Source: Dictyostelium discoideum (taxonomy: Eukaryota). Taken from it: a stretch of 64,000 nucleotides of DNA. The position numbers were made by a program, and so were the translations under genes. The stretch spans positions 1-64,000 of the forward strand of contig CM000150.2 in the NCBI GenBank assembly GCA_000004695.1, read 5' to 3'. Below the pieces are notes generated by a model. It saw only the letters and a program-made list of their open reading frames with translations. It was not told where the DNA came from and did not search any database. Positions 20,552 to 64,000 of this stretch are shown here, one piece after another (within the stretch, counting starts at the first letter, position 1; the number at the start of each line of letters is the position of its first letter).

Positions 20552-21644
20552 AACAAAAAAATCGGCATTACAGATTATGACAGATCTTGGGTAGAAAAGT
20601 TAAAAATAAATTATTTGTACTTACAACCTGATATTTTACATAACATATTATTGGGTATTGTACAATGGGTTTTAAATTATGTTTTCAAAAAATATAAGGA
20701 TCAATTTACAATTTTTATAGAAAAATTAAAAGAAGCTAAAATTGGGGTGCACCAAAATTTACATCAGCAGAGAGATTTGAAGCACAATTTAGTAAAATTA
20801 AATACCTTTTGACAAACAATACAAACAACCAAGATCAACATAAATTTGTAAGAGTTTCAAAAATATTAATGGCAACATTTTTAGATAATTTTAACAATCT
20901 AAAAGAAAAAGATGATGACAATGATGATTTAATTTTAGGGCAAATAATTAAAAAAAATGAAAATATTTATTTAAAAAATAATATTTTATCAGACATTAAC
21001 TTTCATTACAAAAACATAGAAAATATTCAATTTTATAAATCAATTAAAAATTTAAAAGAAATATATAATGTTGGTGATGGAATTGAAGTTGCCTCAGAAA
21101 ATTCATTAACTGGAAGATGTAGTGCAATAATTATCGCTATTTGTTTAATAGAATTAAAAAATAATAAAAGTGCACATTCAATTTATATACAATACTTTGA
21201 TAAAGATACAGGTGATCAAAATAATAAGCATTTCAAGTATAGTATTTGATAACATAGTAAACACATTAATACCAATACAAATCGATTCGTCCAACTATCT
21301 TATAATTTATAAGTGCCATGACCAATTTTCAATAAGTAAAAAAAAAAATGAAAAAATTTCGTCGAACTTATTTACAAAACTTTTACATTTTTACTTAACT
21401 TTTTGTTTTTTTTTTTATTCCAATTTTCTTTTTTTTTCGGTTGGGAATTATAGGATTTTAAAAAAAAATTTATAAAATATATAAAAAAAATGACTCTCAA
21501 TAATTCTGCATCTTTTGAAACACCAAATAGAAGTGGTAATTATGTAAATAGATCATATATAACTTCACAAACATCACCAATAACACCAATACCATCTCTT
21601 ATTTTAAATCAAACTGATAACTCCATAGATCCACAACGTACTGT

Positions 21645-22423
21645 CACAGCGAAGAAAAAACCATCTTTAAAGCATATTAAAATTTAATTTAAAGCGAATT
21701 TAAAGTCCTGAATTAAAGCAATTTTTAAAGTAATTTTAAAGGTAATTTTTAAGTTTACTTTAAAATCACCTTAAAAATTACCTTTAAAATTACCTTAAAA
21801 ATTAACTTTTTAATCGCTTTAAAAGCGAGGTCCAGAGTTCGAAGCCGTTATTTAACGGATAAATTTTTAAAATTTTTTTTGAATATTTTGAAAAATTACC
21901 AAAAGGGATTCGATCCCCCGACCCTTTATTAAAGGGTAATCTCATCAACCATTAAACTATTTGATTGCTTTGATGAAAATTTAAATATGATAGAATATTT
22001 TATCCCCATTTTTTTGATCTAAAATTAGATGTTTTTTTATTAAAAACCTAAAATTTATATTTAAAGGAAATTTAAATTCACTTTAAATCTACTTTAAATC
22101 TACTTTAAATTCTATTTAAAATTAATTTAAATTCTATTTATAATTAATTTAAAATAAATTTTAAAGGCATTTTTAAATATCTTAAAAATTATCTTAAAAA
22201 TTACCTTTAAAATCACCTTTAAAATTACCTTAAAAATCACCTTAAAAATTGCTTAAAAATTTAATTTAAAGCAAATTTTAAAGGCATTTTTAAATATCTT
22301 AAAAATTACCTTAAAAATTACCTTAAAAATGAGTTTTTTAAACGCGGCTTTAAATTCAACTTAAATCCAATTTAAATCAACTTTGCTTTAAATTTGCTTT
22401 AAAGGTGGATTTTTCTTCGCTGT
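21645..22423. mobile_element. MITE (779 bp), complete, inserted in an element X exon, flanked by GT
   Basis: cgtactGT[CACAGCGAAG...CTTCGCTGTG]GTaagaagac, against the uninterrupted cgtactgttagaagac at 42340. Confidence 0.85.
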
Positions 22424-22545
22424 GGTAAGAAGACAACAAAGACCTCAAAGACCAAATGCAATTCATCCACCAACAACAAATATTATAGAAAAAATATTGG
22501 TGTATGAAACATTGCACAGAAATTGTGTTTCTCAATACTATGCAA

Positions 22546-23291
22546 CTGGTAAGGTCACAGCAAAGAAAAATGCACCTTTAAAGCAAATTTAAAGCAAAGT
22601 TGATTTAAATTGGATTTAAATTGAATTTAAAGCCGCGTTTAAAAAATTCATATTTAAGGTAATTTTTAAGGTAATTTTTAAGATATTTAAAAATGCCTTT
22701 AAAATTTGCTTAAAAATTGCTTAAAAATTTATTTTAAAGGTGATTTTAAAGGTAATTTTAAAGGTAATTTTAAAGGTGGTTTTTAAGGTGATTTTTAAGA
22801 TGATTTTTAAGATATTTAAATAGGATTTAAAGTAGATTTAAAGTAGATTTAAAGTGAATTTAAATTTCCTTTAAATATAAATTTAAGGTTTTTAATAAAA
22901 AAGATCTAATTTTAGATAAAAAAAAATGGGGATAAAATATTCTATCATTTTTAAAATTTCATCAAAGCAATCAAATGGTGTAATGGTTGATGAGACTACC
23001 CTTTGATAGAGGGTCGGGGGATCGAATCCCTTTTGGTAATTTTTGAAAAATTAAAAAAAAATTAAAAAAAATTTTTCCTTTAAATAACGGCTTCGAACTC
23101 AGGACCTCGCTTTTAAAGCGATTAAAAAGGTAATTTTAAAGGTAATTTTAAAGGTAATTTTTAAGGTGATTTTAAAGTAACCTTAAAAATTACCTTTAAA
23201 ATTACCTTAAAAATTGCTTTAATTCAGGACTTTAAATTCGCTTTAAATTAAATTTAAATTTGCTTTAAAGGTGGTTTTTTCTTGGCTGTGG
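22546..23291. mobile_element. MITE (746 bp), complete, opposite orientation to 21645-22423, flanked by GT
   Basis: ggtaagGT[CACAGCAAAG...CTTGGCTGTG]GTaagataa, against the uninterrupted ggtaaggtaagataa at 42470. Confidence 0.85.
22966..23040 (+). other. tRNA-like segment inside the MITE core (not a clean cloverleaf)
   Basis: A perfect 5-bp stem ACCCT/AGGGT encloses the 7-nt loop TTGATAG (GAT in anticodon position, 23005-23007). It is followed by GGGGGATCGAATCCC (T-arm or B-box-like), an acceptor-like 7-mer and a T-run. D-arm and acceptor pairing cannot be completed. Confidence 0.3.
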
Positions 23292-23880
23292 TAAGATAAT
23301 TTTGAAGAAAAAGAATGGTACAGCGGTTCCAAATCTCTTATTTCTTTAATAGTTAAAGCATTGCGTGGTGTTTCTCAAAAGTTCATTGACTCTCCTGATG
23401 AACTTACTTACACTGAAAAGGTTGCTTTTGAATTCACTTCAATACCTCTTTATGCTCCAATAAATTAAATCGTTTAAATAAAAAAAAATTAATATGATTT
23501 CACATACTCAACTTTAATTTTTTCTTTTTTTTTTTAAATCTTTTTTAATTTTTATTTTAAATTATTATTTTTAATTTTTATTTTTAAAGTGATATTATTA
23601 ATATATCTTATCAATTTAACTTTATAATATAAATTTATAAAAGCACTTTTAAATTGAATTTTATAAATATTATTAATAAGAATAATTAATAAGTGTACTT
23701 ATAAAGAGTACATTATAATTATAATTAATAATTACGCTTAATAATTATACTTAATAAGTATACTTAATTAGTATATTTAAAAAGTATACTTTATAATTAT
23801 ACTTATTAAGTACACTTTATAATAGTACTATTTACATTCCTACTTTAAAGATGCTTTAAAGGTTTTTTTTTCGCCCCTGT

Positions 23881-26865
23881 GCAACGGTACCAACAACCGT
23901 TTTCAGAAGAACAAGAAGTAAACTTACCATGGGTGGACGTCTGTTCCACCACAAACAAGTTTGGAAAAAATTGGGTCTTCCAAACTTTTGTCAAGAGGTC
24001 CTAAATGGATTAAAAGTCCATCTACTTCCAAACTTCAAGCCGATGCTAAACCCAATTCCGATTTCAATTCCAGAGGGTCCGAAATCAGATTGCATCACAA
24101 AGGAAGTACAAGACTTGTTATTAGACGATGCCATCGAACAAGTACTTCCAAACCGTTATTCAAAGCGCGTTTTTTACTCCAACGTGTTTACGGTTCCAAA
24201 ACCTGGAACGAATCTACATCGTCCACAATACAGAGACTTATTCCGCTTCGTGTGGAAAGGTTCGCACTACCGTTGGTAAACAATGCCGTTCGGGTTATCG
24301 ACAGCTCCTCGTATCTTTACAATGTTGTTACTTGGACGATCTATTAATCGTCGGTTCAACAAATGAAAAATGTTTAGCCAACCTCAAAAAGACAATGGAC
24401 TTACTTGTCAAACTAGGTTTCAAGTTTAAGCTGGAAAAGAGTGTTCTCGAACCAACTCAATCAATTACATTTCTTGGATTACGAATCGATTCAATATCTA
24501 AGAAGCTTCTTGTTCCCAAAGAAAAGAAAAAAAGTGTCATCAAGGAAATAAGAAACTTTTTAAAACTAGATTGTTGCTCCCCAAGAAAGCTTGCTGGTTT
24601 AAAAGGAAAGCTAATGGCACTGAAAGATGCAGTCATCCCATTCAGACTTTACACTCGTCGAACAAACAAGTTTCACTCTCAGTGTCTAACTTTTAGCCAA
24701 TGGAGATTGGGATCAATCATTCCCCATTCCTCACGAGGTCAGGTCAGAGATTTCGCATTGGTTAACAATTCTAAACCAATGGAAAAGAAATCAGTCTGTT
24801 TCCAAGTTACGACTATGTTCTTACAGTGGTCAACAACTCAATCAAACATGTCATTAAATCGTCGAGAAATGCTCGCGCTGTTAATGGCTTATCAATCGCT
24901 ATGTCGGAAACTGAACAACTGCAAGCTGAAGATTCAAACCGACAACACTACCACTCTTTCTTACATCAATCGCCAGGGTGGTCAGATACAAGATCTCTTA
25001 GTTCTGTTCGAACAACTTTGGAAACAATGCCTCAAGAAGAAAGTGAACTTGATTGGAGAGCCTATTCCAGGATTCTTCAATGTAAAAGCCGACCACCTCG
25101 GCCGTCTTTCAGAAATGAATCACAAATCATCGTTCATAGTAATCAAGAGTTACAACTGGCAACTGAAGAAGGAAGTGTTCAATCGTATCCAACTTCAATT
25201 CGGTCAAATACAGATGGATCTGTTCGCATCTCACCTCAACCATCAAACGACCAACTACTCAACCATCAGAATGAATGCACTCAACCTCGATTGGAGTCAA
25301 TGGAAGCAATGTCTAGCCTTCCCACCACCCATTCTTTTGCCTTCTATCGTGGAGAAGATAAACTCATCCAGTTCGAAGAAGGTTTCTACAATACTGATCT
25401 TCCCAATCTGGAGATCAGCAACTTGGTATCTGATGATTCAAGCACAAGTTCCTCGTCATCATCGTCACATGTTTCCTCAAGTACTGGGAACATTCCAAGA
25501 AGTATTGACCAAACAATCAGTAGAGTCGATACCAATTCAGATTCAACAACGTTGGAAGTTAAGGATTATTCAACTTTCCAATATCATGTAATGTCCTTCG
25601 CTCGTACAACAAATACAAAAACAGCTGAAGTCTTGGGAACCTTCCATTCTCAAAGTATATAGCTCCAGTTATACAAGATTCCGCAATTTTTGTACTTTGA
25701 ACTCTTTGAATCCAGCAAACATTACCTTAGTTGTCTTCTTGGATTATCTTACACATCTGTTCAAGCACAAACCTCCGTTAGCCTTCTCAACAATTAACGG
25801 TCATCGATCTATGTTGAATCAGTTGTTACTCCTTAGGAATCAAACTGATATTGTTAATGATCCATTCATTACAAGAATTATGACTGGTATTCACAAGTTG
25901 CGTCCTTAATCAGTAAAGTATAAAGAGATATGGGATGCAAATCAAGTATTAAAGCACTTATCTACCATCAAAGTCATCCACCAAGTACACATACACTTAT
26001 CTACTATCAAGGTCTCATTATTACTACTGAATCAATCAAAGGTCCGGTTATTAATGCTAAAGAACAAAGAAGTGGTGTTGTTTCAATCTTAGAATTAACT
26101 TCGTTAGATGATAAAAACTCTCAAGTATGTCCTGTTCGCCACCTTGCAACATACCTTAGAGCCTCTAAAGGAAGAAGAAAGCCCCCATTCGGGTAACTCC
26201 GTCTTTATTAAGAATGAGAGTGAACCGCTCCAAGTTAATGATATTAACTCAATTGTACTATCAACACTCTCAAAGTCAGGTATTGATATTGTCAAGTTCA
26301 AATCTCACTCTACCCGTTCCGCTATGGCTTCTCTACTGTTGTCCAATAACGTTCCGTTCCACGTTGTCAAGAAGATGGGTCGTTGGAAATCAAACGATAC
26401 TGTAGATACCTTCTAGGATAAAAGAATCATTGGTGAAAAATCTGGTGGTTTCTTAAATACTGTAGTCCAAATTTCATAATATATATATATATGATAATAT
26501 AAATTAAAAATTTATTAAATTATATTTTATATTAAAAATTAATATATATTATTCCCATCCCACCCGCCCATAGTCGGAATTCCATAAATCAAATTGTTTT
26601 AGTTTTTAGTGCCACTATTTTTATTTTTTTTATTTTCTTAAAAATTTCACAAAACTGTTTTTGCCACTTGGCATAATTATCGCGCCACGTGGAAATTTTT
26701 TACTTTTCTTTCGAAAATTTTTACTTTTCTTTCGAAAATTTTTTTTTCTTCGAATGTTCTAGAACATTCTAAAAAATTATCTTATATATTTGGGAAATTC
26801 TAATAAATAAATGTTATTCATAATATATATATATATATTTTATATAATAAATTAAATTTTTAATT
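23881..26865 (+). mobile_element. DIRS-1 copy F: 5'-truncated at the ORF1 end, heavily degenerate (deletions, stops), partial right ITR
   Basis: Eight short ORFs (23929..26416) all match DIRS proteins in broken frames. The ITR at about 26480-26865 has internal deletions and a duplicated tttcgaaaattttt. Confidence 0.85.
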
Positions 26866-27851: not shown

Positions 27852-27889
27852 CACAGCAAAGAAAAATCCACCTTTAAAGCAAATTTTAA
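27852..27889. mobile_element. Solo MITE or element X terminus (CACAGCAAAGAAAAATCCACCTTTAAAGCAAATTTTA) inside a DIRS ITR end
   Basis: The 38-bp TIR sequence is flanked on both sides by the ITR end motif attatcatatatatatat. Confidence 0.5.
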
Positions 27890-30800
27890 ATTATCATATA
27901 TATATATATATTATGAATAACATTTATTTATTTGAATTTCCCAAATATTTAAGATAATTTTTTAGAATGTTCTAGAACATTCGAAGAATAAAAAATTTTC
28001 GAAAGAAAAGTAAAAATTTCGAACCGGCACAATGACGCGATAATTGCGCAAGGTCGAAAAACTGAAAAATTCCGAACCGACACTATGCACAAAGTTGTGG
28101 AGGGTCGAAAACTCTTATTTTTTTGAGTTTTGCGAAATTTTTAAGAAAATAAAAACGTATAAATAGTGGCACTAAAAACTAAAACAATTTGATTTATTTT
28201 ATTTGGGAATTCCTCCTATATATATTTAAGATACACACACACACAAATTTTATACAAATAATTATTTCTCTTTATTAATTTTTAATATTATTATTTTTCT
28301 CATATTATAATTTTAGATATCAACAATAAAATATGTCTACCACTGTTAATAATAACGAAGCCTCTAGTAGTAGTACCTCTGCCACTAATAGCGCTGAATC
28401 CTTTGATTTAAGAATGAAATCAATGGAGGATCAAATCAACAACCTTTCCTTAGCCTTTACAAGATTCATGAAAGAACCTATGTTCTCTTCTAATACCAAC
28501 TCTCGTAGCCAACCTTCTCATGATAACTCTGACACCGAGAATGAACAAAGTGAAGATGAATCAAGTAACAATGTCGATGTTCCAACCGATTATCAATTAT
28601 CCGATACCTTACTTGGTCAGTACAAACATATGGTAAACAATCAAGGTTTACTCGTCGAAGAAGAATGTATCCTCAAGAAAGATGAGATATCCGAATTGAA
28701 TAAAGTATTCAACTTTCCATCTAACTTCCAAGTGAATGTCGCTCCATTCGGTACACCTGAAGGTATTACTGTATCATCCAACGTCAAGAACAATGATACT
28801 GACTTGTTGATTGTCGAAAAGCGAATCAACGATAGCTTAAAACCTTTGCTTCTTATGTCAAGTATGTTATCATCTGATAGCTCTAATGTCGATGTAGAAC
28901 TCAGAGTGCAATTGTCTTAGCCGTTAATGCTCAAGCATCGCTTAGTCGTGTCCGTCGTAACAACATCGCTAAAGAAATCTATGGTTCTGAAGTACTCTTA
29001 CCAATTAAGATCAAGGATACACCAAAGATGTTTGATGAAACTGAAACTGAACGTGTAAGAAAGCTAGCCAAATCAATCAGAAAGAACAACGAAGCAAAAC
29101 AATCATTGTTAAAATTGAATTATCATTCCAAGTCCAATGCCAAGAAATCAGTTAACTCAAGTGGTAATAACACTACAGGAAACAGTAGTAATAGTAAATC
29201 CAGTAGTGGGAGTAATGGCCGATCTAACAACTTCAATGGATCACCAAGTAATGTTGCATCAGGTAGCAACAATACCAAGTCTGCCAACGGTACCAACAAC
29301 CGTTTTCAGAAGAACAGGAAGTAAACTTACCAGTAGGTGGACGTCTGTTCCACCACAAACAAGTTTGGAAAGAATTGGGTCTTCCAAACTTTTGTCAAGA
29401 GGTCGTAAATGGATTAAAAGTCCATCTACTTCCAAACTTCAAGCCGATGCTAAACCCAATTCCGATTTCAATTCCAGAGGGTCCGAAATCAGATTGTATC
29501 ACAAAGGAAGTACAAGACTTGTTATTAGACGATGCCATCGAACAAGTACTTCCAAACCGTTATTCAAAGCGCGTTTTTTACTCCAACGTGTTTACGGTTC
29601 CAAAACCTGGAACGACTCTACATCGTCCAGTTCTAGATTTAAAAAGGTTAAACACTTACATCAACAACCAATCATTCAAGATGGAAGGAATCAAGAATCT
29701 ACCATCAATGGTCAAACAAGGTTATTACATGGTAAAACTCGATATCAAGAAAGCCTACCTCCACGTTTTAGTAGATCCACAATACAGAGACTTATTCCGC
29801 TTCGTGTGGAAAGGTTCGCATTACCGTTGGAAAGCAATGCCGTTCGGGTTATCGACAGCTCCTCGTATCTTTACAATGTTGTTAAGACCTGTACTTCGAA
29901 TGTTGAGAGATATCAACGTATCCGTCATCGCTTACTTGGACGATCTATTAATCGTCGGTTCAACAAAAGAAGAATGTTTATCCAACCTCAAAAAGACAAT
30001 GGACTTACTTGTCAAACTAGGTTTCAAGTTAAATCTAGAAAAGATTGTTCTCGAACCAACTCAATTAATTACATTTCTCGGATTACAAATCGATTCGGTA
30101 TCAATGAAGCTTCTTGTTCCCAAAGAAAAGAAGAAAGGTGTCATTAAGGAAATAAGAAACTTTTTAAAACTAGATTGTTGTTCCCCAAGAAAGCTTGCTG
30201 GTTTAAAAGGAAAGCTAATCGCACTGAAAGATGCAGTCATCCCATTCAGACTTTACACTCGTCGAACAAACAAGTTTCACTCTCAGTGTCTGACTCTAGC
30301 CAACGGAGATTGGGATCAATCATTCCCCATTCCCCAAGAGGTCAAGTCAGAGATTTCACATTGGTTAACAGTTCTAAACCAATGGAATGGAAAAGAAATC
30401 AGTCTGTTTCCAAGTTACGACTATGTTCTTACAACCGATGCCTCGGAATCAGGTGCAGGTGCCACACTCAAGAAAGGAAACAAGGTAATCAAAACTTGGT
30501 CATTCCAGTGGTCAACAACTCAATCAAACATGTCGTCAAATCGTCGAGAAATGCTCGCGCTGCTAATGGCTTATCAAGCGCTATGTCGGAAACTGAACAA
30601 CTGCAAGCTGAAGATTCAAACCGACAACACTACCACTCTCTCTTACATCAATCGCCAGGGTGGTCAAATACAAGATCTCTCAGTTCTGTTCGAACAACTT
30701 TGGAAACAATGCCTCAAGAAGAAAGTGAACTTGATTGGAGAGCATATTCCAGGATTCTTCAATGTAAAAGCCGACCACCTCAGCCGTCTTTCAGAGATGA

Positions 30801-37600: not shown

Positions 37601-39884
37601 TTTTTTTTGTTTTTTTTTTTTGCGGAAATTTATGATATATTTTTGTTCTTTTTCATTTCCATTAACAATAATATGTTTAAGTTTGATATTATTAATTATT
37701 AATTCAGTCCCAAATAATTCATTATAATCATCATTAAATAAGTTGCTAAATGATTATATTGATTTGGTTTTAAGTTTCTAACAATTATTTGATTGATAAA
37801 ATCTGTGACTGATTTATTTTCTTTTACATGCAACTGATTATCTTCTTTCCTTTGTATATTGGATGACATATCTGGATTAGAAACAAATTTGGAATTGATT
37901 AGACACTTTCGGAGAACATTCGAGACAATTCTGACCATGATTTGAGCTTGACCATTACCATGATGGTGGTAAGGCAGACATGTATTGTGAGTAATATTGT
38001 TGACTTGAATACATTTCTTCCAAGGTGTTGATGTGAACAAAGTATCATTATACTCAACTTGATCAACAGTACAGGCATCCAACCCGGATATAAAGTCCAT
38101 ATTGATTTCCATAAAGCATCAGACAGGTAAATGAGATGGCAAGTATAATCCCATGTTCATCTGTGGCGCATAAACAAACATTGCAACTCTTGCAGTAAAA
38201 TAAGATATATTCCATCATTCCATACCAATAAAAATTTCTCTTGACTAATTCAGAAGTTTTACGATTACTCCAGTGTCCAGCAATAGCAGAATCATGATAA
38301 CTTGAAATGACTAACTGTATGACATCTTCAATCTTGATCCATTCGATACCATTCTGATATGTGATACTTAAACTTTTATACTGGTCGTTGATGGTTTCAG
38401 ATTTAATAAGTTTAGCTTCCAATTCATAACCTTTTAAAATTTCCTTAACGATCTTCATTTCATCAAGAATGATACCTGTATTAAAATAATTTTTATCACA
38501 AAAAGAATTTTTAAGAGAGTTAGTAATTTGAGAGAAGTCCATTTTACTTCGATCGAAGTTATGTGATAAATATTATTATTATAATGTGATCTGAAAGACC
38601 ATCAGCGGCTGAATTGGTGACGCCTTTGATGTATTCAAGTGTGACTTTTCAGGCATCAATCTTCTGCATCCATCTGTTGATTCTTTGATTTAACCCAAGG
38701 ACCCTTTGGTTTCTTAGGAATTAAATATTATTATGATGATTACCTTGAACCCAAAGATATTGAAGTGATGCATTTCTAATGATTTCACGAATAGGCTTCC
38801 TTTTCTAACACATTCAAGGTAGAATGGATACTTGGTATTTGGAAGGTTGAGACTTACCGCATTGGCTACAGCTGATTTAACTTGATCAAAAGCCAATTGC
38901 ACCTCAGTATCCCATGTGAAAGCAGAATTCTTCTTAGTGAGACGATAGAGTGGATCAGCTATAATGGCTAAATTTCGGATGAAATCCTTGCAATAATTAA
39001 CGGTTCCCATAAATTATCTAACGGTAGTCTTATCAATTGGTTCTGGCCACTCGACGATTTGACACGGATGAAGAGTTGTACTACATTACATTGAGGTTAT
39101 GATACTTGAGCTTATTGAATACCTGTGATAAATCTTGTTTATGTTGATCATAATAAAAAGATTTTGTTAGTACTAAAATATCATCGATATAGACCACGAC
39201 GAGTCCTCAATCGATTTCATCGGCCAATATTTGTTACATAAATCTTTGAAAAGTATACGGTGCATTCTTGGCACCGAATGGCATTCCCCTCCACTGGAAT
39301 GTACCAAAAGGTGTATGGAATGCTGTCTTTGACCGATCTCTAGGTTCTACTTGGATCTGGTGGAAACCATCGGCTAAATCGATCCTGGACATTAACTTTG
39401 CACCTTTGGTCTTCTGGATGAGTACCGTTGTATTTGGAAGTGGATAACTATCATAAATAGTAAAGTCATTTAATGAACGGTTATCGATGCACATTCACCA
39501 CTTACCATTTTTCTTCTTTGCGAATATCACTGGTGCACCGAATTCTGATTTGTTTCTTTCAATCCATAACTTCTTTAACCTTTCAGTAAGTTGATCTTTC
39601 AATTCTTGTTATATTGACAATAGTACTGGATAACATCTTGATTTTGGAACTTGTGCACCATATTTTAACTTCACTTCAAAATTGAAACCTTTCCGAGATG
39701 GCGGAACTTGGTCTAATGAATCGAAGACTTCCTTGTAGTTTCCCTTCAGATGTTTGATGATGAATTGATCTTGAACTTCTTTCCATTCTTGGTGTTTTAC
39801 TTCCACTACCTTGTATTTCTCTTGATTTGGCTGATGATTAACTTTGTGAACTTGGTACGTTGGTTGATGATTGAAGACCTCTTG
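37600..39884 (-). mobile_element. Ty3/gypsy LTR-retrotransposon pol fragment (Skipper-like), degenerate, RT through integrase
   Basis: Minus ORFs give the RT block YPLPNTTVLIQKTKGAKLMSRIDLADGFHQIQV...MPFGAKNAPYTFQRFM (39234..39494), the integrase zinc region H..H...C..C (38063..38542) and the integrase core ...HHGNGQAQ... (37699..38112). Multiple stops and frameshifts. Confidence 0.7.
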
Positions 39885-39889
39885 ATCAT

Positions 39890-42049
39890 ATGAGCCAACA
39901 AAATTTAAATGAAAATTTTATAATTGATGAGAATAATAATAATTTAGAAAATGAAAATGAAAATGAAAATGAAAATAATTCATTTGAGGATATAGGAAAT
40001 ATATTAAACCAAAATGGACAAGAAAATGATGATATTGAAATTTTAAAAGAAAAAGAAAATGGAAATTTAGGAAAAGAATTAAATAATTATGAAATTGGAT
40101 TTTTAAAGTTGGGTTTAGAAAATGCTAAATCGTTAAAATTTATGCAACAAATTTTGGATTTTTTTAAAAACAATATAAATGCAATTAATGAAATTAGATA
40201 TACAACAAAGTATATGGATTCTATATTTTTAGCAAATTTACCTATCGATGGTCACTTTTTGAGTTACAAATATTATGAAGAGTCAATTTTTTATTATGAA
40301 ATTTGTTCAGTTGTAAAATTATTAATTGAAAAAAAAATTTTTTTAGAATATTTAGATTTCTCAAAAGACTATGAGCAAGGTATTTATAAAAATTATAAAT
40401 CTGGAGAACAATTCAAAAAAGTAAAAAATTCAATTTCAGATAAATTTATTTTATTAAGAATATTTAGTGACGGAATGAGTCATCAAGGTAGATCAGATTA
40501 TACTATAATGGTGGATTTTGAAAATTATAATGGTCCATTTTTTAAAAATAACAAAATTGTTTTATTTAGTGTTCCAAAAGAAAGGTTTCACAATATACAT
40601 CAAACAATTAAAAAATTATTTTCAGCGCAATTTAATAATAAATTAATAATTAAAGATAATAATGGAAATGATTATGAAATTATACCATATGGATTAACAA
40701 TGGATATACCAGAATTTAGATCATCTTGTAGGATTAACCATTATAATTGCAATGAGTTCTCATGTCATACATGTGATAAAGCAAGAGGTGTCGATTATTT
40801 ATTAAAAGAAGGAAATTATAGAAATCAAAAAGACATTATTGACTTTCACAATTCAAAACCAAATAAACAAGATTTTTTGAATCCTCAAAATAAAATTTTA
40901 AAATTAGAAACAGAACAAAAAATGAAAAAAATCGGCATTACAGATTATGACAGATCTTGGGTAGAAAATTTAAAAATAAATTATTTGTACTTACATACTG
41001 ATATTTTACACAAAATATTATTGGGTATTGTACAATGGGTTTTAAATTATATTTTCAAAAAATATAAGGATCAAATTACAATTTTTATAAAAAAATTAAA
41101 AGAAGCTAAAATCATTCCAGATCATTTACCACCATCAGAATCTTTATTTGGTGTAAAAACAAGAAAAGGTAGAGAGAATAGAAGCATATTATATTTTATT
41201 TTATTTTTTACTAAATCAAATGTATCAAATGATGATTCCTTATTATTAGAAGAAATGGTTCAGATTACTTTTTTATTATATCAAGATTCTTTCGACGAAG
41301 ATGATTTGGATAAAATAAATTATTTAGTTAAAAATTTTAATAAAAAAATATTTATGATAATACCAAATGAACCAATCAACTTTCACCTTTTATTACATTA
41401 TCCTTTATATATAAAAAATTGGGGTGCACCAAAATTTACATCAGCAGAGAGATTTGAAGCACAATTTAGTAAAATTAAAGACCTTTTGACAAACAATACA
41501 AACAACCAAGATCAACATAAATTTGAAAGAGTAACAAAAATATTAATGGCAACATTTTTAGATAATTTTAACAATCTAAAAGAAAAAGATGATGACAATA
41601 ATGATTTAATTTTAGGGCAAATAATTAAAAAAAATGAAAATATTTATTTAAAAAATAATATTTTATCAGACATTAACTTGCATTACAAAAACATTGAAAA
41701 TATTCAATTTCATAAATCAATTAAAAATTTAAAAGAAATATATAATGTTGGTGATGGAATTGAAGTTGCCTCAGAAAATTCATTAACTGGACGATGGAGT
41801 GCAATAATTATTGCTATTTGTTTAATAGAATTAAAAAATAAAAAAAGTGCACATTCTATTTATATACAATACTTTGATAAAGATATAGGTGATCAAAATA
41901 ATAAGTACCACTTTTTAAGAAAAAGCTTTTCAAGTATAGTATTTGATAACATAGTAAACACATTAATACCAATACAAATCGATTCGTCTAACTATCTTAT
42001 AATTTATAAGTGCCATGACCAATTTTCAATAAGTAAAAAAAAAAAATGA
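39890..42049 (+). CDS. Element X transposase-like ORF (719 aa here, N-terminally truncated), CACTA/En-Spm (Tnp2-like) family motif
   Basis: HLLLHYPLYIKNWGAPKFTSAERFEAQFSKIKDL fits the conserved H..l.HL...i..wGP......f..ERf...lK box of Tnp2/TnpD-type transposases. In copy (iv) the same ORF is continuous with an upstream zinc-finger-like exon (63601 onward). Confidence 0.55.
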   Translation: MSQQNLNENFIIDENNNNLENENENENENNSFEDIGNILNQNGQENDDIEILKEKENGNLGKELNNYEIGFLKLGLENAKSLKFMQQILDFFKNNINAINEIRYTTKYMDSIFLANLPIDGHFLSYKYYEESIFYYEICSVVKLLIEKKIFLEYLDFSKDYEQGIYKNYKSGEQFKKVKNSISDKFILLRIFSDGMSHQGRSDYTIMVDFENYNGPFFKNNKIVLFSVPKERFHNIHQTIKKLFSAQFNNKLIIKDNNGNDYEIIPYGLTMDIPEFRSSCRINHYNCNEFSCHTCDKARGVDYLLKEGNYRNQKDIIDFHNSKPNKQDFLNPQNKILKLETEQKMKKIGITDYDRSWVENLKINYLYLHTDILHKILLGIVQWVLNYIFKKYKDQITIFIKKLKEAKIIPDHLPPSESLFGVKTRKGRENRSILYFILFFTKSNVSNDDSLLLEEMVQITFLLYQDSFDEDDLDKINYLVKNFNKKIFMIIPNEPINFHLLLHYPLYIKNWGAPKFTSAERFEAQFSKIKDLLTNNTNNQDQHKFERVTKILMATFLDNFNNLKEKDDDNNDLILGQIIKKNENIYLKNNILSDINLHYKNIENIQFHKSIKNLKEIYNVGDGIEVASENSLTGRWSAIIIAICLIELKNKKSAHSIYIQYFDKDIGDQNNKYHFLRKSFSSIVFDNIVNTLIPIQIDSSNYLIIYKCHDQFSISKKKK

Positions 42050-42192
42050 AAAAAATTCGTTGAACTTATTTACATAACTTTTACATTTTTACGTAACTTT
42101 TTCTTTTTTTTTTTTCTTTTTTTCCAATTTTCTTTTTTTTCGGTTGGAAATTATAGGATTTTAAAAAAAATTAAAAAAATATTATAAAAAAA

Positions 42193-42482
42193 ATGACTCA
42201 CAATAATTCTACATCATTTGAAACACCAAATAGAAGTGGTAATTATGTAAATAGATCATCTTTAACTTCACCAACATCACCAATAACACCAATACCATCT
42301 CTTATTTTAAATCAAACTGATACCTCCATAGGTCCACAACGTACTGTTAGAAGACAACAAAGACCTCAAAGACCAAATGCAAGTCATCCACCAACAACAA
42401 ATATTGTAGAAAAAATATTGGTGTATGAAACATTGCACAGAAATTGTGTTTCTCAATACTATGCAACTGGTAAGGTAAGATA

Positions 42483-42530
<48 letters not shown>

Positions 42531-43179
42531 GACTAATTAAATTAAATAAACAAAAACAATACATAAGATTTCCTCTCGTTTTATTAGGACCTGTATATTA
42601 AATGCTGGCGGTACAAATTCAAATGAAAATAAAGTTGTTCTATCCAAATTGGTTAAATGGGTCAACAATAAACGTGGTAACACACGTATTAAAGCCCTAA
42701 ATACCCTTAGACTTTTAGTTAGAAATAAAGTAGAACAGTTCAGCGAGTTGCTCTCTCAGGTTCCAGCATTAATGGAGTATGAATCGGTATGTAAAAAAAA
42801 AAAAAAATAAAAAAATAAAAAAAAAAAAAAAAATAAAAAAAAAAATAAAAAAAAAAAAAAAAATAAATTATTAATAATTTGTTTTTTTAATTTTTTAATT
42901 ATTATTTAGATAACTCCTTTTGATTTGGCCACTCTTATTATCGATACAGTTACCTTAGAAGCTTTTGACTCCGATCCTTTTGTAAAGTTCTTAGTGTCTC
43001 AATGCTTTACAATTGAAGAAAAAGAATGGTACAGCGGTTCCAAACCTCTTATTTCTTTAATAGTTAAAGCATTGCGTGGTGTTTCTCAAAAGTTCATTGA
43101 CTCTCCTGATGAACTTACTTACACTGAAAAGGTTGCTTTTGAATTCACTTCAATACCTCTTTATGCTCCACTAAATTAA
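42193..43179 (+). CDS. Putative downstream exons of the element X gene (42193-42483, about 42590-42782, 42909-43179), separated by short AT-rich introns
   Basis: GTAAG and GTATGT donors and TAG acceptors were read off. The same linked segments recur in copy (ii). The splice pattern is inferred, not verified. Confidence 0.3.
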
Positions 43180-43975
43180 ATCGTTTAAATAAAAAAAATT
43201 AATATGATTTCACATACTCAACTTTAATTTTTTCTTTTTTTTTTAAATCTTTATTTAATTTTTATTTTAAATTTTTATTTTTAATTTTTATTTTTAAAGT
43301 GATATTATTAATATATCTTATTAAGTTAACTTTATAATATAAATTTATAAATGCACTTTTAAATTGAATTTTATAAATATAATTAATAAGAATACTTAAT
43401 AAGTGTACTTATAAAGAGTACATTATAATTATAAATAGTAATTACGCTTAATAAGTATACTTAATAATAATACTTAATAATAATACTTAATAAGTATACT
43501 TATTAAGTATACTTATTAATTTTACTTAATATGTATACTTATTAATTTTACTTAATATGTATACTTAATAATTATACTTAATAAGTATACTAATTAATTA
43601 TACTTAATAATTATACTTAATAATTATACTTAATAAGTATACTTAATAAGTATACTTAATAAGTGTATTTAATAAGTATACTTAATAAGTATACTTTATA
43701 AGTATATTTAATAAGTATACTTAAAAAGTATACTTTATAACTATACTTATTAAGTACACTTTATAATAGTACTATTTACATTCCTACTTTAAAGATGCTT
43801 TTAAGTATTTTTTTTCGCCCCTGTGAAAGGTATAGACAGGGTCATAGGTTCCCCGTCATTTTTTGAAAATGGGGTATATCCCTCTAAATAAATAAATCTA
43901 AAGCTAAATCCTATATTGACTTGCTATATTGCTAAAATTTGAATAAAATGAAAAAAAAAAAAAAAAATCGTAAAA

Positions 43976-44127: not shown

Positions 44128-44770
44128 CACAGCAAAGAAAAATGCACCTTTAAAGCAAATTTAAAGCAAAGTTGATTTAAATTTGATTTAAATTGAATTT
44201 AAAGCCGCATTTAAAAAATTCATTTTTAAGGTAATTTTTAAGGTTATTTTTAAGATATTTAAAAATGCTTTTAAAATTTGCTTTAAAATAAATTTTTAAG
44301 CAATTTTAAAGGTGATTTTAAAGGTGATTTTAAAGGTGATTTTTAAGGTAATTTTTAAGATAATTTTTAAGATATTTAAAAATACCTTTAAAATTTATTT
44401 TAAATTAATTTTAAATTGAATTTAAGTAGATTTAAAGTAGATTTATAGTGAATTTAAATTTCCTTTAAATATAAATTTAAGGTTTTTAATAAAAAAGATC
44501 TAATTTTAGATCAAAATGGGGATAAAATATTCTATCAATTTTAAATTTTCATCAAAGCAATCAAATGGTGAAATGGTTGATGAGACTACCCTTTGATAAA
44601 GGGTCGGGGGGTNGAATCCCTTTTGGTAATTTTTGAAAAATTTAAAAAAAAAATTAAATAATTTTATCCGTTAAATAACGGCTTCGAACTCAGGACCTCG
44701 CTTTTAAAGCGATTAAAAAGGTTATTTTAAAGGTAATTTTTAAGGTGATTTTAAAGTAAACTTTTAAATT
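44128..44770. mobile_element. MITE, truncated (one arm plus core)
   Basis: CACAGCAAAGAAAAATGCACCTTTAAAGC... through the tRNA-like core (n at 44613), ending near ...gattaaaaaggttatttt. Confidence 0.7.
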
Positions 44771-46104: not shown

Positions 46105-49100
46105 TTATGAAATTTGGACGACAGTATTTAAGAAACCACCAGATTTTTCACCAATGATTCTTTTATCGTAGAAGGTATCTACAGTATCATTTGATTTCCA
46201 ACGACCCATCTTCTTAACAACGTGGAACGGAACGTTATTGGACAACAGCAGAGAAGCCATAGCGGAACGGGTAGAGTGAGATTTGAACTTGACAATATCA
46301 ATACCTGACTTTGAGAGTGTTGATAGTACAATTGAGTTAATATCATTAACTTGGAGCGGTTCACCCTCATTCTTAATAAAGACAGAGTCACCCGAATGGG
46401 GCTTTCTTCTTCCTTTAGAGGCTCTAAGGTATGTTGCAAGGTGGCGAACAGGGCATACTTGAGAGTTTGTATCATCTAACGATGTTAATTCTAATATTGA
46501 AACAACACCACTTCTTTGTTCTTTAGCATTAATAACTGGACCTTTAATTGAGTCAGTAGTAATAATGAGACCTTTGAACGACCACTTCACCAAGTCTGAT
46601 GATCTTGCTAAACCAAACATTTTACAGAGTACAAGTGTCTTGTTTAATAGCGCAGTGTATGTGTACTTAGGGATAACTTTGATAGTAGATAAGTGCTTGA
46701 ATACTTGATTTGCATCCCATATCTCTTTATACTTTGCAGATGAAGGACGCAACTTGTGAATACCAGTCATAATTCTTGTGATGAATGGATCATTAACAAT
46801 ATCAGTTTGATTCCTGAGGAGTAACAACTGATTCAACATAGAGCGATGACCGTTAATTGTTGAGAAGGCTAACGGAGGTTTGTGTTTGAATAGATGTGTA
46901 AGATAATCCATGAAAACAACTAAGGTAATGTTTGCTGGATTCAAAGAGTTCAAAGTACAGAAATTGCGGAATCTTGTATAACTGGAGCTATATACTTTGA
47001 GAGTTGAAGGTTCCCAAGACTTCATTAACAGCTCAGCTGTTTTTGTATTTGCTGTACGAGCGAAGGACATTACATGAGATTGGAAAGTTGAATAATCCCC
47101 AGTTTCCAACGTTGTTGAATCTGGATTGGTATCGACTCTACTGATTGTTTGGTCAATACTTCTTGGAATGTTCCCAGTACTTGAGGGAACATGTGACGAT
47201 GATGACGAGGAACTTGTGCTTGAATCATCGGATACCAAGTTGCTGATCTCCAGATTGGGAAGATCAGTATTATAGAAACCTTCTTCGAACTGGATGAGTT
47301 CATCTTCTCCAGGATAGAAGGCAAAAGAATGGGTGGTGGGAAGGCCAGACATTGCTTCCATTGACTCCAGTCGAGGTGGAGTGCATTCATTCTGATTGTT
47401 GAGTAGTTGTTCGTTTGATGGTTCAGGTGAGATGCGAACAGATCCATCTGTATTTGACCGAATTGAAGTTGGATGCGATTGAACACTTCTTTCTTCAGTT
47501 GCCAGTTGTAACTCTTGATTACTCTGGTGGATGATTTGTGATTCATCTCTGAAAGACGGCTGAGGTGGTCGGCTTTTACATTGAAGAATCCTGGAATATG
47601 CTCTCCAATCAAGTTCACTTTCTTTTTGAGGCATTGTTTCCAAAGTTGTTCGAACAGAACTGAGAGATCTTGTATTTGACCACCCTGGCGATTGATGTAA
47701 GAGAGAGTAGTAGTGTTGTCGGTTTGAATCTTCAGCTTGCAGTTGTTTAGTTTCCGACATAGCGCTTGATAGGCCATAAGCAGCGCGAGCATTTCTCGAC
47801 GATTTGACGACATGTTTGATTGAGTTGTTGACCACTGGAATGACCAAGTTTTGATTACCTTGTTTCCTTTCTTGAGTGTGGCACCTGCACCTGATTCCGA
47901 GGCATCGGTTGTAAGAACATAGTCGTAACTTGGAAACAGACTGATTTCTTTTCCATTCCATTGGTTTAGAACTGTTAACCAATGCGAAATCTCTGACTTG
48001 ACCTCTTGGGGAATGGGGAATGATTGATCCCAATCTCCTTTGGCTATAGTCAGACACTGAGAGTGAAACTTGTTTGTTCGACGAGTGTAAAGTCTGAATG
48101 GGATGACTGCATCTTTCAGTGCGATTAACTTTCCTTTTAAACCAGCAAGCTTTCTTGGGGAGCAACAATCTAGTTTTAAAAAGTTTCTTATTTCTTTGAT
48201 GACACTTTTCTTCTTTTCTTTGGGAACAAGAAGCTTCATTGATACCGAATCGATTTGTAATCCGAGAAACGTAATTGATTGAGTTGGTTCGAGAACACTC
48301 TTTTCTAGATTTAACTTGAAGCCTAGTTTGACAAGTAAGTCCATTGTCTTTTTGAGGTTGGATAAACATTCTTCTTTTGTTGAACCGACGATTAATAGAT
48401 CGTCCAAGTAAGCGATGACGGATACGTTGATATCTCTCAACATTCGAAGTACAGGTCTTAACAGCATTGTAAATATACGAGGAGCTGTCGATAACCCGAA
48501 CGGCATTGTTTTCCAACGGTAGTGCGAACCTTTCCACACGAAGCGGAATAAGTCTCTGTATTGTGGATCTACTAACACGTGGAGGTAGGCTTTCTTGATA
48601 TCGAGTTTTACCATGTAATAACCTTGTTTGACCATTGACGGTAGATTCTTGATTCCTTCCATCTTGAATGATTGGTTGTTGATGTAAGTGTTTAACCTTT
48701 TTAGATCGAGAACTGGACGATGTAGATTCGTTCCAGGTTTTGGAACCGTAAACACGTTGGAGTAAAAAACGCGCTTTGAATAACGGTTTGGAAGTACTTG
48801 TTCGATAGCATCGTCTAATAACAAGTCTTGTACTTCCTTTGTGATGCAATCTGATTTCGGACCCTCTGGAATTGAAATCGGAATTGGGTTTAGCATCGGC
48901 TTGAAATTTGGAAGCAGATGGACTTTTAATCCATTTACGACCTCTTGACAAAAGTTTGGAAGACCCAATTCTTTCCAAACTTGTTTGTGGTGGAACAGAC
49001 GTCCACCTACTGGTAAGTTTACTTCTTGTTCTTCTGAAAACGGTTGTTGGTACCGTTTGCAGACTTGGTATTGTTGCTACCTGATGCAACACTACTTGGT

Positions 49101-49182
49101 GATCCATTGAAGTTGTTAGATCGGCCATTACTCCCACTACTGGATTTACTATTACTACTGTTTCCTGTAGTGTTATTACCAC
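46105..49182 (-). CDS. DIRS-1 recombinase-containing ORF (1025 aa), copy J
   Basis: Full length with a C-terminal ...GRWKSNDTVDTFY. Confidence 0.8.
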   Translation of the reverse strand: MVITLQETVVIVNPVVGVMADLTTSMDHQVVLHQVATIPSLQTVPTTVFRRTRSKLTSRWTSVPPQTSLERIGSSKLLSRGRKWIKSPSASKFQADAKPNSDFNSRGSEIRLHHKGSTRLVIRRCYRTSTSKPLFKARFLLQRVYGSKTWNESTSSSSRSKKVKHLHQQPIIQDGRNQESTVNGQTRLLHGKTRYQESLPPRVSRSTIQRLIPLRVERFALPLENNAVRVIDSSSYIYNAVKTCTSNVERYQRIRHRLLGRSINRRFNKRRMFIQPQKDNGLTCQTRLQVKSRKECSRTNSINYVSRITNRFGINEASCSQRKEEKCHQRNKKLFKTRLLLPKKACWFKRKVNRTERCSHPIQTLHSSNKQVSLSVSDYSQRRLGSIIPHSPRGQVRDFALVNSSKPMEWKRNQSVSKLRLCSYNRCLGIRCRCHTQERKQGNQNLVIPVVNNSIKHVVKSSRNARAAYGLSSAMSETKQLQAEDSNRQHYYSLLHQSPGWSNTRSLSSVRTTLETMPQKESELDWRAYSRILQCKSRPPQPSFRDESQIIHQSNQELQLATEERSVQSHPTSIRSNTDGSVRISPEPSNEQLLNNQNECTPPRLESMEAMSGLPTTHSFAFYPGEDELIQFEEGFYNTDLPNLEISNLVSDDSSTSSSSSSSHVPSSTGNIPRSIDQTISRVDTNPDSTTLETGDYSTFQSHVMSFARTANTKTAELLMKSWEPSTLKVYSSSYTRFRNFCTLNSLNPANITLVVFMDYLTHLFKHKPPLAFSTINGHRSMLNQLLLLRNQTDIVNDPFITRIMTGIHKLRPSSAKYKEIWDANQVFKHLSTIKVIPKYTYTALLNKTLVLCKMFGLARSSDLVKWSFKGLIITTDSIKGPVINAKEQRSGVVSILELTSLDDTNSQVCPVRHLATYLRASKGRRKPHSGDSVFIKNEGEPLQVNDINSIVLSTLSKSGIDIVKFKSHSTRSAMASLLLSNNVPFHVVKKMGRWKSNDTVDTFYDKRIIGEKSGGFLNTVVQIS
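47070..48968 (-). CDS. DIRS-1 RT/RNase H/MT ORF (632 aa), copy J
   Basis: Carries YLDDLLIVG and TDASESGAGA. Confidence 0.85.
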   Translation of the reverse strand: MGLPNFCQEVVNGLKVHLLPNFKPMLNPIPISIPEGPKSDCITKEVQDLLLDDAIEQVLPNRYSKRVFYSNVFTVPKPGTNLHRPVLDLKRLNTYINNQSFKMEGIKNLPSMVKQGYYMVKLDIKKAYLHVLVDPQYRDLFRFVWKGSHYRWKTMPFGLSTAPRIFTMLLRPVLRMLRDINVSVIAYLDDLLIVGSTKEECLSNLKKTMDLLVKLGFKLNLEKSVLEPTQSITFLGLQIDSVSMKLLVPKEKKKSVIKEIRNFLKLDCCSPRKLAGLKGKLIALKDAVIPFRLYTRRTNKFHSQCLTIAKGDWDQSFPIPQEVKSEISHWLTVLNQWNGKEISLFPSYDYVLTTDASESGAGATLKKGNKVIKTWSFQWSTTQSNMSSNRREMLALLMAYQALCRKLNNCKLKIQTDNTTTLSYINRQGGQIQDLSVLFEQLWKQCLKKKVNLIGEHIPGFFNVKADHLSRLSEMNHKSSTRVIKSYNWQLKKEVFNRIQLQFGQIQMDLFASHLNHQTNNYSTIRMNALHLDWSQWKQCLAFPPPILLPSILEKMNSSSSKKVSIILIFPIWRSATWYPMIQAQVPRHHRHMFPQVLGTFQEVLTKQSVESIPIQIQQRWKLGIIQLSNLM

Positions 49183-61510: not shown

Positions 61511-62255
61511 TATAAATAAATTAAATTTTTAATTTATATTATCATATATATATATATATTATGAAATTTGGACAGTATTTAAGAAACCACCAGATTTTTC
61601 ACCAATGATTCTTTTATCGTAGAAGGTATCTACAGTATCGTTTGATTTCCAACGACCCATCTTCTTGACAACGTGGAACGGAACGTTATTGGACAACAGC
61701 AGAGAAGCCATAGCGGAACGGGTAGAGTGAGATTTGAACTTGACAATATCAATACCTGACTTTGAGAGTGTTGATAGTACAATTGAATTAATATCATTAA
61801 CTTGGAGCGGTTCACCCTCATTCTTAATAAAGACAGAGTCACCCGAATGGGGCTTTCTTCTTCCTTTAGAGGCTCTAAGGTATGTTGCAAGGTGGCGAAC
61901 AGGGCATACTTGAGAGTTTGTATCATCTAACGAAGTTAATTCTAAGATTGAAACAACACCACTTCTTTGTTCTTTAGCATTAATAACTGGACCTTTGATT
62001 GAGTCAATAGTAATAATGAGACCTTTGAACGACCACTTCACCAAGTCTGATGATCTTGCTAAACCAAACATTTTACAGAGTACAAGTGTCTTGTTTAATA
62101 ACGCAGTGTATGTGTACTTAGGGATAACTTTGATAGTAGATAAGTGCTTGAATACTTGGTTTGCATCCCATATCTCTTTATACTTTGCTGATGAAGGACG
62201 CAACTTGTGAATACCAGTCATAATTCTTGTAATGAATGGATCATTAACAATATCA
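61511..62255 (-). mobile_element. DIRS-1 copy M: 3' fragment (recombinase C-terminus plus ICR) abutting copy L's ITR and cut by the element X TIR
   Basis: ORF 61559..62221 (220 aa, one codon deleted). The ICR is fused directly to copy L's left ITR terminus. Confidence 0.8.
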
Positions 62256-62514
62256 CACAGCGGCGAAAATCAACACTTTAAAGCACCTTTAAATCCAAGT
62301 ACTCTTTTTAATATATATTAATAAGTATACTTAATAAGTAATACTTAATAAGTACACTTAATAAGTATACTTAATAAATATACTTTATAAGTACTACTTA
62401 ATAAGTACACTTATTAAGTATACTTATTAAGTATACTTATAAAGTATTACTTTTTAAGTATACTTATTAATATATATTAATAATTAATTATTTTTATTTT
62501 TTTTTTTAAAAAAT

Positions 62515-62660
62515 GTTTTGTGTGGGAATTGAACCCGTGACCTCCCTTCCTGAAGTTCCGTGGAAATGTTTTATGTGGGAATTTAACCATGACCTCCCTT
62601 CTGGAAGTTCCGGGGGAAAAAATGTTTTATATGGGAATCGAACCCTTGACCTCTACCTTA
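62515..62660 (-). repeat. Three tandem units of about 48 bp resembling tRNA 3' halves (T-arm or B-box GGGTTCAATTCCC / GGGTTCGATTCCC, then an acceptor-like 7-mer and a T-run)
   Basis: The minus strand reads ...GAGGTCACGGGTTCAATTCCCACACAAAACATTTTTT, ...GGTCATGGTTAAATTCCCACATAAAACATTT and ...GGTCAAGGGTTCGATTCCCATATAAAACATTTTTT. No 5' half or anticodon arm is present. Confidence 0.45.
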
Positions 62661-62759
62661 TTAATTTATCGTATTTCTATGTAAGCTATAGACACTTTGA
62701 TAATTTTCATTGAAAATAGCTATAATATGAATGTTAAAAAACTTCCAAGTAAAAAAAAA

Positions 62760-63289
62760 AAGAATGTGAAATAACTCTGTGGTTGTTGTATTATTGATAT
62801 TGCTGTATGTAATTTCTATTGCTGTTGCTGTATTAGTGATGTTGTATTATTATTGTTGCTTTATTATTGCTGTTGTTGTACTATTGATGTTGCTGTTTTA
62901 TTGATGTTGCAGTCCTAACTGTTGTTGTGTTGTTATTATGTTGTAATTATTGTTGTTGTCGCACCTGTTGTGTTCAGCTACAGTGTTGTTATTGTGTTGT
63001 TATTGTGTTGTAATTGATTTTGAAGTTGTTTTGTTATTGTGTTGTTATTGTGTTTGTTGTGTTGTTATTGTGTTGTTATTGTGTTTGTTGTGTTGTTATT
63101 GTGTTGTTATTGTGTTTTTTGTGTTGTTATTGTGTTGATTTCATTTTTCAATTGATTTTGCAGTTGTTGTTGTACCTGTTATTGTTTTATTGTTTTATGG
63201 TTGCACCTGTTGTGGTTTTTATTATTGTTGCTAAAATTGTTGGTGTGTGTTGTAGTTGTTTGTTCTGTGTATATATTCATAAAATTTTC

Positions 63290-63290
<1 letters not shown>
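62760..63290. repeat. GT-rich minisatellite (tgttgttattgtg-type units), then a poly-T tract at 63290-63340
   Basis: Direct reading. It produces the artefactual Cys/Val-rich ORFs 62950..63138 and 63014..63577. Confidence 0.8.
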
Positions 63291-63334
<44 letters not shown>

Positions 63335-64000
63335 ACTTTTTTCAATTTTTTCATTTTTTATTTTTTTTTTGCCGAAAAGGGAAAACATGCATGTTTAATT
63401 TTTAATTTTATTTTTTTTAATTTAATTTTATTTAATTCTTTTTTTTTTTTTGTATTTTTTTTTTTTTTTCATTTTTTTATTTCACTTTTTTATTTTTATT
63501 TTTTCATTTTTCATTTTTTTTTTTTCGCTTTTTTATTTCACTTTTTTATTTTTATTTTTTTAATTTATTTATTTTAAAAACATATTTGAAATGGATTTAA
63601 AAAAAGTGGATTGCATTATTTGTAAACAACCAATTAAATGTTTCAAAGATATAGTTATACATTTTATTAAACATAATGATCGTTGCCCAATTTGTTTAAG
63701 CAAATATACATCATTTTCAAAAATGTATGCTTTAACAGGTCATTATTATTCACAAGGTTGTAATAATAAAAAAAATAATATAAAGGGTGAACAAAAATTG
63801 CAAGATGAATTTTATCAGAGGTTATCAAAGATTACAGGCGATAATATTATATACCCAACCAACTTATCCGATGACCCTTTCAATCATATGAGCCAACAAA
63901 ATTTAAATGAAAATTTTATAATTGATGAGAATAATAATAATTTAGAAAATGAAAATGAAAATGAAAATAATTCATTTGAGGATATAGGAAATATATTAAA

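Follow-up and report, generated by a model that had tools for sequence, protein, structure and literature searches.

The DDT transposons of Dictyostelium discoideum, reportedly catalogued by Glockner et al. in 2001 as DDT-A, DDT-B and DDT-S, rank first in abundance among the DNA transposons of a major model organism and are a main constituent of its centromeres. They account for ~20% of D. discoideum centromeres compared with 1% of the remaining genome, and for 22% of the chromosome 1 centromere (PMC2665215), and DDT-A transcripts have been detected in RNA-seq data (PMC4559204). A 2017 review states that no Dictyostelium DNA transposase resembles known ones (PMC5633606), and our searches of the accessible literature turned up no report that connects DDT with CACTA, EnSpm or Mirage. 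A superfamily assignment of DDT appears to be absent from that literature, and Repbase may already have one. Here we analyze element X, a repeated element in a 64,000-nucleotide stretch of D. discoideum DNA (contig CM000150.2, positions 1 to 64,000; hereafter the window) that we take to be part of the chromosome 1 centromeric repeat cluster described by Glockner and Heidel (PMC2665215). Element X very probably represents the catalogued DDT-A family and shares the window with DDT-B-like and DDT-S-like relatives; organism, centromeric location and abundance agree, as does the presence of two autonomous types and one short type. With the DDT family on record since 2001 and its abundance at centromeres already described, the novelty here is modest. 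We regard the result, which assigns a known element to a known superfamily and adds one interesting structural lead, as sound but modest.

The closest described systems belong to the CACTA/EnSpm-Mirage-Chapaev group of DDE transposons (CMC; CMCT when Transib is included). In maize En/Spm, a single transcript is alternatively spliced to yield both proteins, TNPA and TNPD. Mirage of Caenorhabditis elegans, a Repbase superfamily, has by Repbase definition a target site duplication (TSD) of 2 bp, and the Transib TSD is 5 bp. RAG1 structures contain ZnC2 and ZnH2 modules. Chapaev combines CAC...GTG termini and C(2)C and LH motifs with an H(4)H motif and TSDs of 3-4 bp (PMC4079192). For the CMC/CMCT clade as a whole, one source gives termini of 5'-CA..TG-3' and TSDs of 2-5 bp (PMC12730594, citing Yuan and Wessler 2011).

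We propose, with a probability of roughly 0.88, that element X is a DNA transposon of the CMC(T) clade, autonomous and of the cut-and-paste type, very probably DDT-A. Sequence profiles show homology of its protein to CMC transposases, and its predicted fold is RAG1-like; the enzyme is distantly related both to the CACTA/En-Spm transposases of plants and to the recombinase RAG1. This placement names catalytic residues open to mutation, extends the clade to Amoebozoa (including a homologue in Heterostelium album), and provides a RAG1-like transposase of deep branching in a host amenable to genetics.

Ends, target sites and genes of element X

Element X was assembled by joining two copies at a common ATGAGCCAAC (62256-63887 plus 39890-43825), which gives 5,568 bp. 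Self-BLAST of this composite against the window recovered three copies, all on the forward strand. A 5'-truncated copy at 39885-43825 corresponds to composite positions 1628-5568, the last 3.9 kb at the 3' side, and a second copy at 62256-64000 holds the 5' 1.7 kb (composite positions 1-1751) and runs past the window edge. The third copy, at 20555-23881, is older, 93-97% identical, fragmented by internal deletions and interrupted by two nested short elements.

The element opens with CACAGCGGCGAAAA at 62256 and closes with ...TTTTCGCCCCTGTG at 43825 and 23881. An earlier reading of the window, made from sequence only, had proposed these termini; the sequences are borne out, and the 3' end of the third copy moves from 23880 to 23881. 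The terminal inverted repeats (TIRs) are 38 bp long, imperfect, and of the form CACAG...CTGTG, with ~32 of 38 bases matching between the 5' TIR at 62256-62293 (CACAGCGGCGAAAATCAACACTTTAAAGCACCTTTAAA) and the 3' TIR at 43788-43825. This anatomy agrees with the TIR transposon of about 5.6 kb that the sequence-only reading had described, but that length belongs to the composite. The terminus pattern occurs 22 times where 4.3 are expected.

Just inside the TIRs lie arrays of a 13-bp tandem unit, ATAAGTATACTTA, whose 10-bp core AAGTATACTT is palindromic, being its own reverse complement. The 5' array comprises 13 copies (62314-62483) and the 3' array 30 copies (43373-43766); chance alone would yield 0.1 occurrences of the subterminal motif, and 59 are present. 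A 16-bp unit, as had been suggested, is one 13-bp unit plus overlap.

Target sites were read at seven complete insertions, drawn from the window plus three related loci (L001, L002 and L003). All seven carry a 2-bp TSD and none reaches 3 bp: TA at 16242-16999, GT at 21645-22424 and GT at 22556-23290 in the window; TA at the full-length copy in L001 (2434-10226); CG at a deletion derivative in L003 (13817-16563); AT at the L002 element (14789-16834); and AA at the B-type element of L003 (6979-12558), which is tentative because that locus is rearranged. The three window duplications had been noticed before, and for both GT cases the uninterrupted 39885-43825 copy supplies the empty site. Compared with 42337-42360 for the 21645-22424 insertion and with 42470-42490 for the 22556-23290 insertion, exactly GT is duplicated. 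We estimate the chance of a matching dinucleotide at ~0.1 per insertion from local base composition, so seven of seven is far beyond chance. Duplications of this length imply a 2-bp staggered strand transfer. At the rearranged L003 locus, two inverted copies of a B-type terminus, each with the same 14 bp of flank, lie at 4776 and 12558 (ttttaccttctgtt followed by CACAG, and CTGTG followed by aacagaaggtaaaa), and a second 3' terminus lies at 12650, 92 bp beyond 12558.

The two joined copies contain one long open reading frame (ORF), as the sequence-only reading had proposed. ORF1 is uninterrupted and spans 818 residues: residues 1-99 come from 63591-63887, within the start of the frame in the second copy (63591-64000, forward strand), and residues 100-818 from 39890-42046, the forward-strand frame of 719 residues plus stop ending at 42049. 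It includes the previously quoted HLLLHYPLYIKNWGAPKFTSAERFEAQF, and in L001, from D. cf. discoideum, a full copy has a gene model (P0002) with a single exon and 818 residues. The N-terminal zinc-finger motif also proved real. Residues 1-99 hold two C2H2/C2HC-like fingers (C8, C11, H24, H28 and C32, C35, H50, C57), whose eight Cys/His ligands are all conserved between the A-type protein and a B-type protein that is 47% identical (P0015 of L003); AlphaFold renders them, at low confidence, as two strand-strand-helix units. For ORF1, the ratio of nonsynonymous to synonymous substitution rates (dN/dS) comes to 0.24 in the comparison with L001 and to 0.37 in that with the B-type. We read ORF1 as the transposase, with two N-terminal zinc fingers, a RAG1-like predicted catalytic core and a C-terminal beta domain. 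Within a disordered linker of ORF1, a (GAAAAT)n coding microsatellite encodes an Asn-Glu repeat, and the A-type copies differ there by one GAAAAT unit (63943-63966 versus 39945-39974).

A second gene, ORF2, follows on the same strand. Its 256 residues are encoded in three exons, 42193-42474, 42568-42786 and 42910-43179 (stop included), separated in our splice model by A/T-rich introns with GT..AG boundaries (42475-42567 and 42787-42909). Spliced ORF2 is 100% identical over 256 residues to DDB_G0267230 of D. discoideum AX4, a gene carried by a contig of 4.92 Mb that we take for chromosome 1; the model reproduces that protein exactly, so the downstream exons at 42193-43179 do form a multi-exon gene, as had been surmised. 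The match also gives indirect support to the DDT identity of element X. A literature search for DDB_G0267230 found nothing.

ORF1 and ORF2 are both under purifying selection. Splice sites and reading frame of ORF2 are conserved in L001, with a dN/dS of 0.32 (0.24 in the C-terminal 160 residues), and the B-type family has a homologous downstream gene (tblastn E 2e-10, within a called 276-residue gene at L003 10619-11610). From these three observations we conclude that ORF2 predates the split between A and B types and that selection acts on it as part of the element. Capture of a host gene by a single element lineage, with no role in transposition, would suit a protein that has no recognizable domain, is entered as hypothetical at NCBI and dictyBase, and is split by introns beside an intronless ORF1. 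We consider such a capture improbable, since the homologous gene persists in the B-type family despite a transposase only 47% identical, and since splicing, frame and selection are maintained in L001.

The 5' region of the element, upstream of ORF1, is itself repetitive. Positions 62510-62653, in the 5' untranslated region, comprise ~2.6 tandem copies of a 53-bp unit containing GGGAATTGAACCC / GGAATCGAACCC, the reverse complement of a motif like the T-arm/B-box of transfer RNA (tRNA); similar motifs occur in the L001 copy at ~2740-2860. ARAGORN found no tRNA genes, and Rfam gave nothing above threshold, only far-sub-threshold microRNA-like hairpin matches on the palindromic repeats. Between the 5' repeats and the start of ORF1 (62798-63140 and 63294-63577) lie a TG-rich minisatellite with 11-, 31- and 62-bp periods, a 77-nt poly(T) tract and then T-rich repeats, and the length of this stretch differs among the L001, L002 and window copies. 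The full-length copy from D. cf. discoideum measures 7.8 kb against 5.6 kb for our composite, with ~3 kb of additional 5' DNA at L001 2740-5700 that includes long (ATT)n/(GTT)n tracts; two further genes are called in its 5' region, at 1888-4062 and 4201-4584, the second Cys-rich.

Proposed placement in the CMC(T) clade

The link to CMC transposases emerges through intermediate proteins. A profile built from DDT proteins only, run with HMMER exhaustively against 1.84 billion representatives, returned 68 matches, of which 47 lie outside the family (E 2e-7 to 1e-3), all at profile positions ~466-720; the dictyostelid Heterostelium album also yields a match. Among the 47 distant proteins, nine carry DUF4218, five Transposase_21 and five DUF1258. 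Three full-length examples exceed the Pfam cut-offs of 28.6 bits for Transposase_21 and 33.1 bits for DUF1258: Transposase_21 scores above cut-off in P0054 (42 bits) and in P0068 from the thrips Frankliniella fusca (32.5 bits), while P0075 carries DUF1258 at 52 bits together with sub-threshold Transposase_21 and DUF4218 matches. DUF1258, a protein of unknown function in Pfam, is a Caenorhabditis family that may correspond to Mirage.

Aligned by hhalign with 15 of the proteins found through the DDT profile, several of them with Transposase_21, DUF4218 or DUF1258, the DDT family scores a probability of 99.7% (E 4.8e-26, 464 columns), and every CMC signature residue falls into register. In the first half, IFSD293G (D293 at 40469) aligns with the first DG of the homologues, MD371IPEF (D371 at 40703) with their second D, and C391HTC394 (40763-40774) with their CxxC. 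In the second half, DIL-H473 (L472-H473 at 41009) falls on D-x-M/L-H, H598LLLH602 (41384-41398) on HxLLH, and AERFE622 (E622 at 41456) on FxFE. C391-x2-C394 and H598-x3-H602 are invariant within the DDT family as well as aligned with the motifs of the homologues. Because similarity in the C-terminal half of the core had brought in the homologues, the comparison was repeated with residues 225-462, which had no part in recruitment; this N-terminal half alone gives the same register (P 5e-4). D293, D371 and E622 are thus the putative DDE catalytic residues of an RNase H-like core, as judged from the alignment. C391-x2-C394 together with H598-x3-H602 probably coordinates zinc, as the analogous ZnC2/ZnH2 modules do in RAG1.

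The Tnp2-like, CMC-like character that the sequence-only reading had assigned to ORF1 is thereby upheld through the DDT-profile intermediates and not by a direct scan. That reading had taken the lack of a significant HMM match to CMC or Tnp2 transposases as grounds for giving up the assignment, and the direct Pfam scan of ORF1 did find none. Pfam scans of 14 DDT family members likewise gave no Transposase_21 and no BAH match, and a word-indexed protein search with ORF1 returned only D. discoideum relatives.

Several features tie DDT to the CMC/CMCT clade. It shares the putative DDE triad, the CxxC and HxxxH motifs and profile homology to Transposase_21, DUF4218 and DUF1258 proteins; its CACAG...CTGTG termini follow 5'-CAC...GTG-3', and its 2-bp TSD falls inside the 2-5 bp range. 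It differs in being too diverged for a direct Pfam match, in its amoebozoan host, and in having an N-terminal zinc-finger pair and, by fold prediction, a BAH-like C-terminal domain.

Within the clade, the resemblance to each branch is partial. Like En/Spm, DDT elements carry two genes, a large TnpD-like transposase and long subterminal arrays of short repeats inside the TIRs, and they are accompanied by short non-autonomous derivatives with only the ends in common. En/Spm, however, has a 3-bp TSD and CACTA termini; the 2-bp TSD and CACAG termini of DDT argue against EnSpm proper. Moreover, the two DDT genes are separate and consecutive, and no similarity between ORF2 and TNPA was detected. Chapaev and DDT have CAC...GTG ends, a C(2)C motif and an LH motif in common, but the DDT H(3)H spacing and 2-bp TSD, in place of H(4)H and 3-4 bp, argue against that branch. 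The 2-bp TSD agrees with the Repbase definition of Mirage, and the tentative placement nearer Mirage, suggested by the sequence-only reading, draws on this length and on H(3)H only.

The predicted fold of ORF1 matches RAG1 in fold searches, which raises the question of whether the element belongs to the Transib/RAG1 lineage proper. We think this very improbable. A sequence-profile search of the PDB with the ORF1 core gave nothing significant (RAG1 sub-threshold, E 0.16), and neither the 5-bp TSD nor the sequence signature of Transib/RAG1 is found. Compared with RAG1, ProtoRAG and Transib, sequence identity is 11-12%, the TSD has another length, and a RAG2-like partner was not detected. The sequence-profile matches carry Transposase_21, DUF4218 or DUF1258, not RAG1/Transib domains. 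The fold matches include no solved CMC structure, and RAG1 may therefore owe its place to being the closest relative with a solved structure.

Identity with Tdd-4 or Tdd-5, which are integrase-like and Ginger-related (PMC2836005), was rejected, as ORF1 has no integrase match and its predicted fold is RAG1-like. That the repeats are segmental duplications of centromeric DNA and not a mobile element is scarcely credible: although the window copies are all fragments in a repeat-rich, rearrangement-prone centromere (PMC2665215), their termini are defined and inverted, seven insertions bear 2-bp duplications (matching empty sites for two), copies occupy unrelated loci in other strains, and both ORFs are under purifying selection.

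Several points weigh against a CMC(T) transposon of the DDT-A type. Pfam Transposase_21 (PF02992) does not match ORF1 at E values up to 10, and the link to CMC transposases is transitive, with a best distant E of only 2e-7. The hhalign score is partly circular, since the 15-protein set was recruited through the C-terminal half of the core. We know of no citable biochemical data for any CMC transposase. No intact copy lies entirely inside the window, and the 5.6 kb figure comes from two joined copies. Finally, Pfam scans of the exons and of spliced ORF2 detect no domain, and the role assigned to ORF2 is argued by analogy throughout.

The C-terminal domain and a possible mechanism

The DDT transposase ends in a beta-rich domain (approximately residues 700-806; 41690-42010, forward strand) with a predicted BAH-like fold. 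BAH domains lead the matches for this stretch in three fold searches, and model confidence is moderate. At the sequence level neither the BAH model of Pfam nor any BAH sequence of the PDB is matched, and hhalign of the domain against the CMC-like set found no similarity (E 0.12). The one match of the domain in a PDB sequence-profile search, to a mannan-binding lectin (whole-sequence E 0.004, per-stretch E 0.84), looks spurious.

Such a domain might act as a histone reader and anchor the transposition complex in the methylated heterochromatin of centromeres, a proposal that we put forward as doubtful. If true, it would explain the enrichment of DDT at centromeres and the insertion of DDT elements into one another. 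It would parallel the chromodomain of chromoviral integrases and, to our knowledge, would be the first case of a DNA transposase using a BAH domain for safe-haven targeting. The BAH-like C-terminus is a testable lead on a possible means of confining a DNA transposon to centromeres.

A scheme for transposition can be outlined by comparison with better-described elements. The ORF1 transposase would recognize the 38-bp TIRs, bind and cleave the ends, and integrate with a 2-bp stagger; cleavage could follow the nick-then-hairpin route of RAG1/Transib. The zinc fingers of ORF1 or the ORF2 protein may bind the palindromic 13-bp repeats and pair the ends, much as in the En/Spm model in which TNPA acts on 12-bp repeats. 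Gene-less short elements with the same TIR would be mobilized in trans.

Related elements and genomic setting

The window is AT-rich with GC-richer islands and dense in mobile elements, and X, B-type and short elements together make up 19% of it, beside the published 22% for DDT in the chromosome 1 centromere. The 39885-43825 copy adjoins at its left end a reverse-strand fragment of long terminal repeat retrotransposon reverse transcriptase (39234-39491, RVT_1 match). The left neighbor of the second copy is a reverse-strand DIRS-type ORF with a Phage_integrase (tyrosine recombinase) domain at 61559-62218, and another DIRS-type ORF with a Phage_integrase domain lies on the reverse strand at 46105-49179. 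The B-type autonomous family is represented by a reverse-strand fragment at 12438-14200, which includes the 5' terminus at 14200 and is 84-88% identical to the L003 B-type element.

Short non-autonomous elements of 735-780 bp share the TIR consensus CACAGnnnnGAAAA...CCTTTAAAGCA and have neither genes nor 13-bp arrays. One stands on the forward strand at 16242-16999, and a truncated relative, 95% identical to it, on the reverse strand at 44128-44756. The other two, a DDT-S-like element at 21645-22424 (forward) and one at 22556-23290 (reverse), are those nested in the older copy of X. They inserted no more than ~130 bp apart in its ORF2, in opposite orientations, one in exon 1 and the other at the splice-donor GT of the first intron.

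A solo 5' terminus of a short-type element (~44 bp) occurs at 27852-27895 within a tract of (AT)n and is followed by ...atattatgaataac, a right flank that also adjoins the complete 2,046-bp element at L002 14789-16834 in another D. discoideum strain. The pair may reflect a strain polymorphism, in which AX4 either lost internal sequence or had another history.

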